The position numbers and the translations under genes were made by a program. DNA of 64,000 nt, from sequence record PZ452595.1; one strand, written 5' to 3'. This document shows, in pieces, positions 1,950-56,056 of this stretch. The notes beneath the pieces are model-generated. The model ran no database searches. It saw only the letters and a list, made by a program, of their open reading frames with translations, and had not been told where the DNA came from. The DNA is from a phage. How positions within the stretch are numbered: the first letter of the stretch is position 1; each line of letters starts with the position of its first letter.

Positions 1950-2189
1950 TTATTTACCTATCACAGTTTTAATATGAGTTGTTCCACGTTCTTTAAGGGT
2001 GGAAAGTAATTTTTGGCATTTTTCTAAATCAGATTTCCAACTATATGGTCTATCAATACTAGTCCAATCAGTTTTATAATACTGTTTCCATTTAGAGAAA
2101 AAATATTTCTTATACTCTACAGCAAATGAGATGTTCTCATTAGAATAAGAACTAATTGCTGTGAGCTTTACCAAACGAAATTTCATCAT
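1950..2189 (-). CDS. hypothetical protein (31.2 position)
   Basis: 79 aa ORF; its ATG overlaps the cd stop codon (ATGA), indicating translational coupling. Confidence 0.55.
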   Translation of the reverse strand: MMKFRLVKLTAISSYSNENISFAVEYKKYFFSKWKQYYKTDWTSIDRPYSWKSDLEKCQKLLSTLKERGTTHIKTVIGK

Positions 2190-2767
2190 TCACCACAGAA
2201 TTCGTTGATATTTTCCCAGTTTAACTTATTCAAGTTTTTCTTAGGAACATTAAACACTTCAATACCTGCATTTCGCAAAATATCATCCCAACCAGGTTTA
2301 TTTTTGTCGTATGTTTCGCAATAAACTAGTTTTTTAATTCCAGATTGAGCTATCGCTTTTGCGCAATCCGGACATGGAGAAAGTGTTACATACATAGTAG
2401 CACCTTCAATAGAAGAACCATTTCGTGCAGCAAACAAAATTGCATTTAGTTCAGCATGAATTTCATTTTTAGATGACCATTCCGAGTGAGCGCTGCGGTG
2501 TTCTTTCGCCAAGACAAAACGATCAGTTGAACCAAATGATACACATTCAGGCTTATGACCTTGAATGATAGTATGTTTAGGCTTATTCAATAACCAACCT
2601 TGCTCAGCAGCATAATCACAACAGTTCACACCCCCTGCGGGTGAACCATTATACCCAGTAGAAATAATACGCCCATTCTTTTCAATTACTGCTCCTACCT
2701 TCCAGGAGCAACATTTTGATTCCTGCGATACTAAATATGCAATTTGAAGTACTGTACTCGCTTTCAT
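2186..2767 (-). CDS. cd: dCMP deaminase
   Basis: 193 aa; cytidine/dCMP deaminase zinc motifs (HAE...PCxxC: HAELNAI, SPCPDCAKAI); length and position match T4 cd. Confidence 0.9.
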   Translation of the reverse strand: MKASTVLQIAYLVSQESKCCSWKVGAVIEKNGRIISTGYNGSPAGGVNCCDYAAEQGWLLNKPKHTIIQGHKPECVSFGSTDRFVLAKEHRSAHSEWSSKNEIHAELNAILFAARNGSSIEGATMYVTLSPCPDCAKAIAQSGIKKLVYCETYDKNKPGWDDILRNAGIEVFNVPKKNLNKLNWENINEFCGE

Positions 2768-6685: not shown

Positions 6686-7182
6686 AAAGTTTTAATAACC
6701 TCTATAATATCGTCTTGAGAAAGACCGTTAATTAAAATATGATGTTCAGCTGGAGATTTAGAAATTTTAAAGCATGCCTCAACATCTTCTGCCATATCCG
6801 ATGCACTACGATTTGGATTACTAATACCAAGGCGGTGTTTTCCCGTCAAAGGATTAACGATGATATAGCATTTGCAGCTATTGATATGAACATTGGGTTG
6901 AGTCTGATTAATGAACACTTCACAATCATACTTAGCGAGTTGATTTTCTAAAAAGACTTTCATCTCTTCAACCGCATCAGGAAGCATATCACGGGCTTGC
7001 TCAAGACGACGATTTCGATATTCTTTAATGGTCGTTTTCCGCTTGACTTGTTTAGCTAAATCTTTCTTAAGATCAGTGATATATCCAACTCGACGATTTC
7101 CTTTGAATACAGAAATCCCATCTGTAGTATCACCGTATGCTTCAACGACCATTTCAGTAGTAATAAGCTGCAAATCCATCAT
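6676..7182 (-). CDS. alc: Alc, inhibitor of transcription from cytosine-containing DNA
   Basis: 168 aa (MM start); length and position between rnlA and the pseT.x ORFs match T4 alc. Confidence 0.85.
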   Translation of the reverse strand: MMDLQLITTEMVVEAYGDTTDGISVFKGNRRVGYITDLKKDLAKQVKRKTTIKEYRNRRLEQARDMLPDAVEEMKVFLENQLAKYDCEVFINQTQPNVHINSCKCYIIVNPLTGKHRLGISNPNRSASDMAEDVEACFKISKSPAEHHILINGLSQDDIIEVIKTLCM

Positions 7183-7210
7183 AAAGTCCTCATGTTATGT
7201 TAGTAAGACT

Positions 7211-7240
7211 ACTATAACACAACACGAGGGACTTGTAAAC
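7211..7240 (-). promoter_or_regulatory. T4-type early promoter upstream of alc
   Basis: Minus sense GTTTACA, 17-nt spacer, TGt-TATAGT. Confidence 0.55.
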
Positions 7241-7243
7241 AGC

Positions 7244-8831
<1,588 letters not shown>

Positions 8832-52427: not shown

Positions 52428-52631
52428 TCACGATTTATCCCCATAGATGTCTCTCATCAATTTAAGCGCTGAGCGTTCTAATTTCTTTTCTTTCTCAGCA
52501 CTAATCATTGATTTCATCCATTCTTCTGATTCGTTCTGCATTTCTTTATTTGCTTGTTCAACCCAACCATCATCAATGTACATTGAGTTTGGTCTATTGA
52601 ACCATTCAAGAATCTTCTTGAGAGCTTTCAT
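52428..52631 (-). CDS. hypothetical protein
   Basis: 67 aa, ATG start. Confidence 0.45.
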
Positions 52632-53091
52632 TTATTTTACCTAAAACAATAGTAGGAGCATCGTCAAATTTATGAATTTTGAGTAAATTTGGATTTAAAT
52701 TATTCCATAAAGAGGTAATAAAATATGATAGCGCATTTTCTTCTGTAATTATAAATTTATTTCCCTTATCTATTTTCCAGTCATATATTGAATCATATGA
52801 ATAGAAGGACAATGGTTTATTATTATAATATGCTTCACTAACATCAATATAGTTAGATTTAGTAAATGCTTGAATTGCCATAAATGGAGAATTTTGTACA
52901 GTTTCAATAATTCCGATCTTTTTAAGTTTTATTTCAACATCTTCTGGAATTGGCATTGAAATAAAATCTTCTACTAGATACATATTATTGTCATATCTTT
53001 TATCAATCATTACTGCTACGGTAATTGGAACATCCTTGACAAACGCCATACTAATACTATTGATAGACATTTCAAACAAAATTGCTTCCAT
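52606..53091 (-). CDS. hypothetical protein (mrh/srh region)
   Basis: ATG at 53091 preceded by GAGGA (161 aa); track start is TTG. Confidence 0.5.
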
Positions 53092-53099
53092 AATTTTCC

Positions 53100-53441
53100 T
53101 CAATCGCAAGATGTAGATGAACAACTAGAATCACAAGAACTTCCACATGAATCGCCCGTCCATACATGAACAGGAACATTAGTATCATATGAATCAGAAC
53201 TAGACTGTGTTTTCTGTGTGTTAGATGATGTAGTAGGTACTGACCAGCGCCAAGGATTTTTATAATATTCTTGGGCTTCTTCATAAGTCATAGTAACTGC
53301 TTCTACTGTTCCATCTCCCATATAAACATATTCAACTACAGTTAAAGGAAGGTAGTCATTTGAAATAGGAACTACACCTTCCCCAGGAGTCGTAGAGAAA
53401 AAATCCGTAAAGAAACTTTTAAACCAGTTAAAGATAAACAT
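53100..53441 (-). CDS. hypothetical protein with Cys/Ser-rich C-terminal tail
   Basis: 113 aa; C-terminus [18 protein letters not shown] (C-x3-C-x3-C-x4-C). Confidence 0.5.
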
Positions 53442-53647
53442 TACAAAAAGCCTCTCTTGAATTCGACTTGCTTTTCGCCATAATCATATCGAATCTCTGC
53501 ATTAAATTCGACAGAACCATCTGCGTACATCATAAATGAATGCACAACAACTTCTGTAGACCATGGTTGTAGTTCATATTTCTTCATTACATGCCGTGAA
53601 ATGATAATATCTAAATCTTCATTTGGTTTAATCCAGCGATTTAACAT
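53441..53647 (-). CDS. hypothetical protein
   Basis: 68 aa, ATG start. Confidence 0.45.
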   Translation of the reverse strand: MLNRWIKPNEDLDIIISRHVMKKYELQPWSTEVVVHSFMMYADGSVEFNAEIRYDYGEKQVEFKRGFL

Positions 53648-53712
53648 AGTACTCTCCTCTATAAGATAATTCTATTATACCATACTCATTTTGGAAAGTA
53701 AACCGTTTAAAT

Positions 53713-53739
53713 GAAAAAAAGGACTCCCGAAGGAGTCCT
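53713..53739 (-). terminator. rho-independent terminator after soc
   Basis: AGGACUCC-UUCG-GGAGUCCU followed by UUUUUUU in minus sense; identical to the element at 361..383. Confidence 0.65.
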
Positions 53740-53744
53740 TGAAT

Positions 53745-53990
53745 TTATTCACCAGTTACTTTCCACAAATCTTCATTTGCAGCAATCCATTCAGTACGTT
53801 GATTTTCTTCATATACTGTAGAATATGCTGCTTTTTCTGAAGGGAATGTCTGGTAATGAGCACCAGAAATTTTGTGAACGTCAGAGTAAAGAGGGAAAGC
53901 TACGGAAATTTCCTTTCCTTCAATTTTCTTATTTCCATCTAATTTCTGCTCAAATGTTTTAATATTAACATAACCGCGAGTACTAGCCAT
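53745..53990 (-). CDS. soc: small outer capsid protein Soc
   Basis: 81 aa, MASTRGYVNIKTFEQKLDGNKKIEG...; late promoter TATAAATA upstream. Confidence 0.9.
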   Translation of the reverse strand: MASTRGYVNIKTFEQKLDGNKKIEGKEISVAFPLYSDVHKISGAHYQTFPSEKAAYSTVYEENQRTEWIAANEDLWKVTGE

Positions 53991-54020
53991 GTAATTCTCC
54001 TTTTATTTAAATTACATGAT

Positions 54021-54028
54021 TATTTATA
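54021..54028 (-). promoter_or_regulatory. late promoter for soc
   Basis: Minus sense TATAAATA about 30 nt upstream of the soc ATG. Confidence 0.55.
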
Positions 54029-54073
54029 ATAAATTCTCGCGGCTTTTAAGTCGTCGTTTAAATAAACGAGCTA

Positions 54074-54592
54074 TTAATAGCCTCGATCTTGACGTGCGAA
54101 ATTTTCGGCATTTTTCAGATAATAAAGTTTAAAGATTTCCTCAGCTGACATTCCAAGAGCAATAAATTTATTCATAAAAAAGTGAAATTGGTCAATCAGT
54201 TCAAATTTAATTTCAAGCTGATCTTCAGGAGATAAGTCTTGAATTTTCTTGGATTGCATTTCAGAATAACGTTTCTTCCAAGGTTTCCATACGGCAGAAG
54301 CTTCTTTTTCACCATTACTCATACCACCAAGAGAAGTATATAGCTCGCGAGTTTCATCTGCGATATAATCGTCTTGGTTTCGCAGCCAAGCAAGAACTTC
54401 TCCTGCGGTTTCAAGTGAATCAGGATGACGATTTGTTTCTGGCTTATCATTAGCCAAACGAATCTGTAAAGACCGCTGCATATCAAGCATAACCTGCAAT
54501 GGGTCTTTTTCATCACCGAGAATATCCCAGTATTCATTTTGAGCTTTATCAACACCTTCGATCAAATGAGCGCATTCATTAAAGTGAGCCAT
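54074..54592 (-). CDS. 56: dCTP pyrophosphatase gp56
   Basis: ATG at 54592 gives MAHFNECAHLIEGVDKAQNEYWDILGDE... (172 aa, MazG-like); the track frame has a hydrophobic N-terminal extension. Confidence 0.88.
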   Translation of the reverse strand: MAHFNECAHLIEGVDKAQNEYWDILGDEKDPLQVMLDMQRSLQIRLANDKPETNRHPDSLETAGEVLAWLRNQDDYIADETRELYTSLGGMSNGEKEASAVWKPWKKRYSEMQSKKIQDLSPEDQLEIKFELIDQFHFFMNKFIALGMSAEEIFKLYYLKNAENFARQDRGY

Positions 54593-54626
54593 TATTTTTC
54601 CTTTCAATTCATGGGTTAGTAGATTA

Positions 54627-54650
54627 ATTATACAATAAATATATAAAGCA
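54627..54650 (-). promoter_or_regulatory. MotA-dependent middle promoter for gene 56
   Basis: Minus sense tTGCTTtA (MotA box), 11-nt spacer, TATAAT. Confidence 0.55.
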
Positions 54651-54663
54651 ATAAGGAGGACAT

Positions 54664-54864
54664 ATGGTACAAAAATTAATGGCACTTGTTGATGCCATAA
54701 AAGGTAATAAGAAACGTATAGCTTTTACTATTTCTGCTATGGTAGGAATTTTACTCTGGAACTTTATTCTATCACCTGTTGCGATTGCACATGGTATTAA
54801 TATTCCAGTAGTTACTCTTGATACATTCGTAGATTTAGCATTTGCTTTAGTTGGGTTAATTTAA
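54664..54864 (+). CDS. small two-helix membrane protein, divergent from gene 56
   Basis: 66 aa plus-strand ORF (MVQKLMALVDAIKGNKKRIAFTISAMVGILLWNFIL...); AAGGAGGA 5 nt upstream of ATG; stop overlaps the gene 61 stop convergently. Confidence 0.4.
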   Translation: MVQKLMALVDAIKGNKKRIAFTISAMVGILLWNFILSPVAIAHGINIPVVTLDTFVDLAFALVGLI

Positions 54865-55891: not shown

Positions 55892-56056
55892 TTACTCTTC
55901 TTTTTCTTTAGATTCCTCTTTTTTCTTTTTAGGAATCTGTTCAGGACCTTTATTTACTACAGCGCCTGATGTTGTTCCAGTAGAGATATTTTCAGGATTA
56001 CCACCTGAATCTCCAGCGACCATATCTTCTTTGATAAATTCTTTATATGTTTTCAT
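55892..56056 (-). CDS. small hypothetical protein (61.1 position), not in ORF track
   Basis: 54 aa hand-translated (MKTYKEFIKEDMVAGDSGGNPENISTG...); stop 3 nt before the gene 61 ATG. Confidence 0.4.
   Translation of the reverse strand: MKTYKEFIKEDMVAGDSGGNPENISTGTTSGAVVNKGPEQIPKKKKEESKEKEE

Follow-up and report, generated by a model that had tools for sequence, protein, structure and literature searches.

A conserved Ser-Cys-Asp ending in the Mrh.1 family of T4-like phages and its recurrence on unrelated small phage proteins

The 113-residue protein studied here, encoded in a 64,000-nucleotide stretch of phage DNA (sequence record PZ452595.1; this whole stretch is called the window), ends in a tail rich in cysteine, serine and aspartate, whose conservation in sequence comparisons supports the view that it is a selected, functional element. 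Alignments with relatives indicate that the conserved unit consists of two Ser-Cys-Asp (S-C-D) triplets, the last of them at the C-terminus, and that the four-cysteine periodicity is an elaboration of the T4 lineage. The same ending was also found on other families of phage proteins, which identifies the motif as a portable C-terminal module carried by unrelated small phage proteins and, on this evidence, confined to phages. A putative metal- or thiol-based role of the tail is plausible, if tentative.

The gene itself is already catalogued, having stood in the databases since 1990 as a 'hypothetical protein' of T4. Neither the precise motif that is conserved nor its spread among phages as a portable module appears to have been described in the searchable literature. 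T4 carries roughly a hundred host-takeover early genes without known function, and a sharply conserved motif provides an experimental handle on one of these orphans.

Identity of the gene, locus and expression

Over the 1.4 kb surrounding the ORF, the window is 97-98% identical to phage T4, phage NR1 and about 500 other Tequatrovirus records, and the ORF is collinear with T4 mrh.1 according to the annotation of T4 and NR1. The T4 counterpart (mrh.1, T4p027, NP_049642, UniProt P20706, annotated as 'Mrh.1 hypothetical protein') is identical to the window protein at 110 of 113 residues, with the three substitutions located outside the motif and an identical tail. The ORF also matches the Pfam family PF23836 (DUF7206) with 102.7 bits against a cut-off of 25.6, residues 3-113 aligning with profile positions 1-107 of 107, and its full length matches phrog_2031 (E 5.6e-33). 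These comparisons identify the ORF as the ortholog of T4 mrh.1 and establish its membership in DUF7206, a family without assigned function, membership in which says nothing about mechanism.

The gene order soc - mrh.2 - mrh.1 - mrh is shared by the window, T4 and NR1 (Table 1). The gene sits in the host-takeover block soc-mrh.2-mrh.1-mrh-srh-modB, and T4-like phages of enterobacteria carry it as a non-structural accessory gene. The stop codon of mrh.2 and the start codon of mrh.1 overlap in the sequence TAATG, which implies translational coupling of the two genes, and both this overlap and the gene order are also found in two distant loci (L009 and L015). At the other end, the Shine-Dalgarno sequence of mrh (GAGG) overlaps the stop codon of mrh.1 (TGAGGAAAATTATG). 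An alternative start of mrh, the TTG at 53124, would make this gene overlap the tail; it was dropped because the GAGG belongs to the annotated ATG. The promoter listed upstream of mrh.2 is a candidate by consensus match only; eight promoter-like sites were counted against a mean of 8.8 in shuffled sequence, which represents no excess.

Table 1. Features of the mrh.1 locus and of its product, with positions in the window
Feature	Coordinates	Strand	Basis
soc	53745..53990		upstream of hairpin terminator
Hairpin terminator 3' of soc, upstream of the mrh.2-mrh.1 unit	53719..53740	-	terminator annotation in phage NR1
Sigma-70-like early promoter candidate, upstream of mrh.2	53674..53702	-	TTTACT-17-TATAAT, extended -10 (TG)
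mrh.2, 68 aa, phrog_1873	53441..53647	-	TAA stop overlaps mrh.1 ATG
mrh.1 ortholog, 113-aa CDS with TGA stop	53100..53441	-	ORF list, DUF7206, phrog_2031, T4 collinearity
Predicted N-terminal amphipathic helix, 16 residues, consensus M-I-x-W-L-K-x-L-F	53394..53441	-	AlphaFold2, hydrophobic moment, conservation
Predicted small folded core, beta-hairpin 34-40/46-52 and helix 53-66	53244..53342	-	AlphaFold2 pLDDT 78-87
Predicted disordered Ser/Thr/Asp-rich C-terminal half, residues 67-113, net charge -4	53103..53243	-	AlphaFold2, composition
Cys/Ser/Asp tail, residues 96-113	53103..53156	-	codon table, family alignments and statistics, pN/pS ~0.06
mrh, 161 aa from the ATG at 53091	52606..53091	-	T4 annotation, T4_MRH Pfam match

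Regarding expression, the mRNA of T4 mrh.1 belongs to the early class and the Mrh.1 protein was undetected by mass spectrometry (MS), while for mrh.2 and mrh of T4 the RNA is early and the protein falls into the middle class (PMC9697503, supplementary file 4). The description of the product as an early protein in the first-pass annotation holds for the T4 ortholog, in which it is the mRNA that is classed as early (PMC9697503). The non-detection of Mrh.1 is weak evidence, because trypsin is predicted to release its C-terminus as a 36-residue peptide with four Cys; it may be technical, or it may reflect modification or low abundance.

In the full-text literature no paper on mrh.1 or DUF7206 was found in searches that included PF23836, T4p027 and NP_049642, mrh is absent from the text of the T4 takeover review, and the papers recovered for mrh and srh were on other T4 topics only. 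The published work on Emp of Mosigvirus deals with a different gene (gp94, adjoining motA).

The tail in this phage

A Cys/Ser-rich C-terminal tail on a 113-residue ORF had been noted in the first-pass annotation, and both its coordinates and its sequence were confirmed exactly. The Cys residues are located at positions 99, 103, 107 and 112 (C-x3-C-x3-C-x4-C), all of them within the last 15 residues, and the protein has none elsewhere. At the 1.6% Cys content of the window ORFs of at least 50 aa, the probability of at least four Cys in a given 14-mer is 5.8e-5, and about 0.013 C-termini of that kind are expected among the 225 window ORFs of this size. The mrh.1 ortholog is the sole ORF of the window with a CD ending, and at least three Cys at the C-terminus occur elsewhere in the window in one unannotated ORF only. 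An origin of the tail by repeat or slippage at the DNA level was considered and rejected, because Tandem Repeats Finder detected no repeat in it and its eight Ser residues are encoded variously by TCA, TCT and AGT.

The family signature appears in this tail as S-C-D around C103 and S-C-D-COOH around C112, while C99 and C107 are lineage-specific, other genera having Ser, Tyr or Gly at their positions. The T4 residue equivalent to the first family Cys varies with the alignment, being C107 in one and C103 in another; C103 and C112 are taken here as the conserved pair because C103 is found in an exact S-C-D-S context and the resulting spacing of 9 is modal.

Predicted architecture

The structure of Mrh.1 was predicted with AlphaFold2 from a 59-sequence alignment, and the resulting model comprises the three parts listed in Table 1. 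The N-terminal helix is placed at residues 4-15 with low confidence. Its hydrophobic moment in the window protein is 0.5-0.6, within the 0.5-0.9 obtained for the N-terminal helices that serve as evidence of membrane proximity. A signal peptide or transmembrane (TM) helix at this N-terminus was considered and discarded, as the hydrophobic stretch is short and broken by Lys and Asp, and it is read as an amphipathic helix. The membrane association of Mrh.1 is inferred from this amphipathicity only.

Most of residues 76-102 have a pLDDT below 50, and averaged by block it is 43-49 for residues 71-113. A second AlphaFold2 run, on a Mosigvirus-type homolog, gave the same architecture, again with a tail pLDDT below 50. 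When the AlphaFold2 model was compared with the PDB by Foldseek, nothing was recovered at E <= 0.001, and the best E of 1.6 carries no meaning because the confident part of the model is about 33 residues only. Profile and sequence searches of PDB sequences gave no relevant match, and no metal-binding or redox family or structure was matched in Pfam, NCBIfam or the PDB sequences and folds.

Conservation among relatives

The outcome named in the first-pass annotation as evidence against the tail was its loss or frameshift in close relatives that conserve the rest of the protein. This comparison was carried out, and the tail is kept in-frame in ~536 of ~550 close-relative sequences; at 90% identity, the clusters that retain it have 515, 3, 17 and 1 members. 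The close relatives without a tail are isolated records only, either frameshifted (P0006) or fragments at contig ends. In the cluster of 17 sequences (P0003), an insertion of 51 residues has been accepted directly before the tail, and the tail ending is kept. The periodic spacing of the Cys residues, which the same annotation had emphasised, stands for the T4 lineage but does not extend to most relatives, in which two Cys are found at variable spacing.

Besides close relatives, a single-sequence search of 1.84 billion cluster representatives returned no more than three distant relatives and a spurious match to a repeat protein (P0012), which was discarded. A profile search collected 119 proteins, nearly all of them annotated as PF23836 and from T4-like phages, with Escherichia, Salmonella, Enterobacter, Serratia, Edwardsiella, Cronobacter and others as hosts. 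The tail is present in all of the distant family members.

Conservation statistics were obtained from 114 full-length cluster representatives from T4-like phages. The protein ends in Cys-Asp in 112 of them and in Cys-Asn in the other 2. Exactly two Cys are present in 101 representatives, four Cys being a feature of the T4 lineage only, and in 105 of the 114 every Cys lies within the last 30 residues. Of 236 tail Cys, 223 are preceded by Ser and 218 are followed by Asp, and His makes up 0.3% of the tail in the T4-like family. The last two Cys are 5-13 residues apart, with modes at 7 and 9, and the consensus ending can be written as (S)SYDSG(S)SCDS[S/G]n SCD-COOH.

The 59-sequence alignment gives a similar picture, in which the last 12 residues hold 7 of the 17 most conserved columns, and the remaining ones correspond to K8, F11 and P19 at the N-terminus and to the beta-hairpin segment. 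Y40, G42, G44, E47 and C112 are invariant in it, and C103, D104, S105, S111 and D113 are conserved in at least 90% of the sequences. The region that precedes the motif varies widely among relatives in both length and sequence.

Selection on the peptide

The codons used for the motif vary across loci (TGT/TGC for Cys, TCN/AGY for Ser and GAT/GAC for Asp) and the residues remain unchanged. In the last 20 codons of the Tequatrovirus tails, the Nei-Gojobori method gave a pS of 0.231 versus a pN of 0.013; the values for the last 13 codons in other genera were 0.363 and 0.036, in a set that was picked by the motif and is somewhat biased. The resulting tail pN/pS is ~0.06-0.1. In addition, the motif is kept with different genes downstream, which are mrh in T4, srh in L009 and an ART-like gene in L014, so that an overlapping ribosome-binding site cannot explain it. 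These substitution patterns indicate that strong purifying selection maintains the motif as protein sequence and not as DNA.

The same ending on unrelated phage proteins

A search with a tail-only profile in a database of 5.8 billion proteins, which had no statistical power, missed the family and surfaced two other proteins (P0124 and P0125). P0124 consists of 71 aa, starting with MDNRCSNCGS... and ending with SYDSPSCDSGSSFSGSCD, and its contig encodes a DNA ligase and a weak match to a 5'-3' exonuclease domain. The ORF upstream of P0124 was considered as a relative of Mrh.2 and rejected, as the two have no similarity.

The ending was also searched for at the DNA level with a degenerate pattern (YDSG..CDS..CD-stop). 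The viral contigs yielded 15 matches, and all 15 are real tails; in 596 Gb of cellular genomes, none of the 3 matches is a real tail; and 17 of the 46 matches in metagenomes are real. One of the carriers outside DUF7206, in a 40-kb phage contig, adjoins a lysis cassette and a terminase gene, starts with MGYFTDLIKRWFKR and ends with ...SHCHHSGGYDSGGYDSGTCDTSSYGCD. Another, from an 82-kb contig, has a CxxC start and an SSB-like gene beside it, and a further one lies in a contig of 346 kb. The contigs of these other carriers are phage-like. The N-termini of the carriers differ, since those of P0124 and L052 are of the CxxC type and those of L069, L072, L085 and others hold TM helices. In several families from low-GC phage-like contigs, an N-terminal TM helix is followed by a Lys-rich segment, a run rich in His, Ser, Tyr and Asp, and the ending ...SYDSGGCDSGSCDCDCGCD; the phage-like context was checked and seen for L069 and L072. 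According to the positive-inside rule, a Lys-rich segment after a TM helix marks the cytoplasmic side, so that in these carriers the tail would be cytoplasmic.

When the family profile was aligned by hhalign with the L044 protein, the last 23 columns aligned and nothing else did, and a tblastn search of the phage collection with this carrier returned no match. Extra Cys or His residues are found beside the motif in L042 (CLCSCS...CDSGSCGCD), in L044 (SHCHHSGG...TCD..GCD) and in the low-GC carriers (HDSHSSYDSGGCDSGSCDCDCGCD), which, together with the Cys4 version of the T4 lineage, indicates that additional Cys or His residues were gained independently in several lineages. Phages that attach this module may include T4-like phages, the owner of the jumbo-sized contig of 346 kb, those of contigs of 40-97 kb and low-GC large phages.

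Proposed mechanism and alternative explanations

The two invariant Cys with their Asp flanks, in a disordered context of Ser, Gly, Tyr and Asp, fit a thiol-based role, either in metal binding or in redox chemistry. The reading tentatively preferred here, which is possible but stops short of being probable, is that the tail acts as a flexible, membrane-proximal chelating 'claw' that binds a metal or the metal site of a partner. It is favoured by the repeated independent gains of Cys and His beside the motif and by the membrane anchors. In such a mechanism, two to four thiolates, the adjacent Asp carboxylates and the free carboxylate of the C-terminus would form the claw, carried on a floppy tether, and its ligand would be a divalent or transition metal (Zn2+ or Fe2+, for example) or a metal site on a partner protein. 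The N-terminal amphipathic helix, or the TM helix of the analogous proteins, would hold the claw near the inner face of the membrane, and the specificity for the target would reside in the hairpin core, possibly jointly with Mrh.2. The Cys4 version of T4 could provide full tetrathiolate coordination within one chain, while the Cys2Asp2 versions would need carboxylates or dimerisation.

Several observations speak against this chelator. The conserved Cys pair has a variable spacing (5-13) and forms none of the CxxC or CxC pairs that zinc sites and metallothioneins typically show. Disorder is predicted for the tail, His is almost absent (0.3%) from it in the T4-like family, no metal-binding family, PDB sequence or fold was matched, and Mrh.1 went undetected in T4 proteomics. 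Moreover, the strict Ser and Asp flanks and the strict terminal residue would suit a recognition motif no less than a chelator. A broader proposal is somewhat more doubtful. In it, many unrelated phages would equip small early or accessory proteins with a portable claw, used either to take up, hand over or remove a metal ion or to bond covalently with a host factor that depends on thiols.

The same two invariant Cys, close to the end of a disordered tail, could instead serve in redox chemistry or thiol exchange. The tail would then close into a reversible disulfide, or pair through a mixed disulfide or persulfide with a thiol enzyme of the host or the phage, such as thioredoxin, glutaredoxin or a cysteine desulfurase, and it might act as a pseudo-substrate, decoy or shuttle by analogy with the C-terminal Cys pair of ribonucleotide reductase R1 or mercuric reductase MerA. 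The variable Ser/Gly spacer (5-13 residues) could accommodate a disulfide loop of loose geometry, and the inferred cytoplasmic location would keep the thiols reduced at the outset. This explanation is nevertheless unlikely, as the protein neither carries a redox domain nor has one encoded beside it, the His gains beside the motif in other carriers suit metal binding better, and the Asp beside each Cys should raise rather than lower the pKa of the thiol. Not far from it, and slightly less credible, is a linear motif or modification site similar to those of the ribosomally synthesised and post-translationally modified peptides (RiPPs), in which the N-terminal part would act as recognition or leader region and the core rich in Ser, Tyr, Asp, Gly and Cys would be bound, modified (by a thioether, an azoline, or phospho- or glyco-Ser/Tyr, for example) or cleaved by an enzyme of the host or the phage. 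The layout does resemble that of a leader peptide, with a conserved N-terminus, a hypervariable middle and a conserved extreme C-terminus rich in Cys and Ser, the residues flanking the Cys and the terminal residue are strictly conserved, and Mrh.1 went undetected in standard proteomics (PMC9697503). Two compositional matches point in the same direction, with TIGR04363 (FxLD lanthipeptide) at residues 95-109 (14.1 bits) and with PF25184 (YxzE-like putative bacteriocin) in the TM-anchored carriers outside T4 only (18.4 bits), but both remain far under the curated cut-offs of 30 and 40 bits, respectively. In addition, the surroundings of mrh.1, whether in the window, T4 or the distant loci, include no maturase-like gene for a YcaO, LanB/C/M or radical SAM/SPASM protein, a protease or an exporter; the neighbours in the window and T4 are soc, mrh.2, mrh, srh, modA.2-4 and modB, and those of the distant loci are similar or ART-like. 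The presence of the module on very different N-termini makes a shared leader unlikely, and family members of 96-201 aa are long for RiPP precursors.

The composition of the C-terminal half would also suit a generic acidic low-complexity tail, that is, an entropic spacer, a solubility tag or a nucleic-acid mimic like those of gp32 and SSB, in which the Cys would be incidental. Ser and Thr account for 47% of the last 47 residues, which have a net charge of -4 and are predicted to be disordered, and the stretch ahead of the motif is highly variable in length and sequence. However, within the tail, conservation peaks at the Cys (C112 without exception, C103 in at least 90% of the sequences), Cys is otherwise absent from these proteins, the low pN/pS reported above applies to this very segment, and the S-C-D...C-D-COOH ending recurs on unrelated proteins, which together make this explanation very improbable. 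An origin outside the protein level, in which the ORF is spurious or the conservation reflects an overlapping nucleotide signal such as the mrh ribosome-binding site, is scarcely credible. The overlap of the mrh Shine-Dalgarno sequence with the mrh.1 stop codon and the non-detection of Mrh.1 by MS would agree with it, but this overlap covers the stop codon, perhaps the last codon, and no more; synonymous variation is abundant while the residues are conserved, the motif persists where the downstream gene differs, and Pfam and PHROG families exist for the protein. The remaining probability corresponds to an explanation outside those listed here.

For the tail itself, what is conserved can now be given a sharp and testable definition, namely two S-C-D triplets on a disordered tether, with the last one at the very C-terminus. 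The striking four-Cys periodicity has turned out to be lineage-specific, and the ending recurs on unrelated membrane-anchored small phage proteins. If the tail is in fact a metal- or thiol-targeting device, it would represent a new type of small phage effector, and if the portable claw exists, T4 Mrh.1 would be its experimentally tractable prototype.

Comparison with known systems

In the comparisons made here, Mrh.1 does not show the diagnostic features of siderophore microcins, RiPP precursors, zinc fingers or metallothioneins. Class IIb (siderophore) microcins combine a double-glycine export leader with a Ser/Gly-rich stretch in their last ~10 residues that ends in Ser. In the Mrh.1 family, 112 of the 114 representatives end in Cys-Asp, and the N-terminal amphipathic helix lacks a GG/GA leader. 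RiPP precursors with C-terminal cores rich in Cys, Ser and Thr include the lanthipeptides, the SCIFF peptides or ranthipeptides, and azole-containing microcins such as McbA. Mrh.1 resembles them in having a conserved N-terminal region followed by an extreme C-terminus rich in Cys, Ser, Gly and Asp. It differs in its greater length, in matching such families below the cut-off only, and in the lack of a maturase, protease or exporter gene in its neighbourhood.

With respect to metal-binding proteins, a zinc ribbon or finger would present two CxxC or C/H knuckles in a folded mini-domain, whereas the Mrh.1 tail contains no CxxC and has a pLDDT below 50. Metal-binding tails rich in Cys, His or Asp, such as the C-terminal tails of SlyD and HypB, and metallothionein-like peptides share with Mrh.1 a disordered terminus rich in residues able to act as metal ligands, and the analogous phage carriers show His-rich runs before the motif. 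In contrast to metallothionein-like peptides, the Mrh.1 family has two conserved Cys and almost no His, and neither dense CxC or CxxC pairs nor a match to a Pfam or NCBIfam model was found in it.

A further likeness is found among enzymes. Class Ia ribonucleotide reductase R1 and mercuric reductase MerA carry a Cys pair near the C-terminus of a mobile tail, and in Mrh.1 a Cys pair is likewise located a few residues from the C-terminus of a mobile tail. Unlike those of R1 and MerA, the tail of Mrh.1 is borne by a tiny non-enzymatic module of ~35 residues, and its Cys spacing is longer and variable. Finally, T4 Mrh.1 has the same locus position, the same length of 113 aa and the same tail as the window protein, from which it shows no material difference.

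Length variants and frameshifted versions of Mrh.1

Within Tequatrovirus, a longer variant of Mrh.1 (protein P0003, 164 aa) is present in Escherichia phage 235Ecol030PP and in 16 other sequences. An insertion of 51 aa (…EEIIRQPEKAGNVGAGALPLNSKKLKEHLDSRRSESYIDTAPIITATAVSS) accounts for the difference and matches Mosigvirus- and Dhakavirus-type homologs in their middle region; the C-terminus is nevertheless the four-Cys tail of the T4 type. Two origins can explain this: deletion gave rise to the 113-aa form of T4, or P0003 is a mosaic.

Among the database versions of Mrh.1 a single one is frameshifted, P0006 (141 aa), which runs into the frame of the 70-aa ORF overlapping the tail-coding region (see table). 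P0006 illustrates both the appearance of a frameshifted relative and the rarity of such relatives. A frameshift in mrh.1 was also observed in one metagenomic T4-like contig (IMGVR_UViG_3300006879_000208; loci L008 and L021, in the latter at about 2095..2200). The site is a T-run in codons 13-15 of the gene (GATTTTTTT), and the product is cut to 28 residues counted from the start codon, the printed reading frame being 35 codons long. An error in sequencing the homopolymer could account for this frameshift, or the gene could be a genuine pseudogene.

Coordinates of the features discussed (nt; window unless another locus is named)
Feature	Location	Strand	Remark
mrh, mechanical ORF call	52606..53124	-	TTG start at 53124
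70-aa ORF, alternative frame	53072..53284	-	overlaps tail-coding region of mrh.1
66-aa ORF	54664..54864	+	occupies place of dam
54-aa ORF	55892..56056	-	position of T4 gene 61.1
Lysis-cassette/tail-ORF region	L044 952..2901 (IMGVR_UViG_3300042922_000422)		40-kb phage contig

Start codon of mrh

With the TTG of the mechanical call, mrh and the mrh.1 tail would share 25 nt, and this start was rejected for the annotated ATG at 53091. This ATG, whose GAGG Shine-Dalgarno sequence overlaps the mrh.1 stop codon, is the credible start of the gene.

Genetic context of tail-bearing ORFs

The tail-bearing ORF of contig L044 (104 aa) lies directly 3' of a lysis cassette and ahead of the genes for the small and large terminase subunits; accessory 'moron' genes typically occupy this position. 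Besides two holin-like transmembrane proteins and an endolysin, the cassette has an Rz-like gene in which an Rz1-like lipoprotein is embedded.

A hint that tail-bearing ORFs are tied to ADP-ribosylation comes from co-location only. On the low-GC phage contig L072, an ADP-ribosylglycohydrolase-like gene (6736..7551) is found ~800 bp upstream of such an ORF; in Serratia phage PS2, the gene at L014 1874..2449, immediately 3' of the mrh.1 homolog, resembles, judged by eye only, a ModA/ModB-type ADP-ribosyltransferase; and in T4, modA and modB are located 1.5-2.5 kb downstream.

Comparison with T4 from soc to gene 61

When window 53990..54861 was compared with T4 (L001 3889..6251), two T4 genes were found to be absent from the window phage: segF, a homing endonuclease gene that T4 has between soc and gene 56, and dam, which in T4 separates genes 56 and 61. 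The 66-aa ORF has a counterpart in the annotation of phage NR1, an RB51-like hypothetical protein of hydrophobic sequence.

The 54-aa ORF begins with MKTYKEFIKE, followed by a Gly/Ser/Thr-rich stretch and then a Lys/Glu-rich tail. This N-terminus appears similar to the N-terminal capsid-targeting sequence of the T4 internal proteins.
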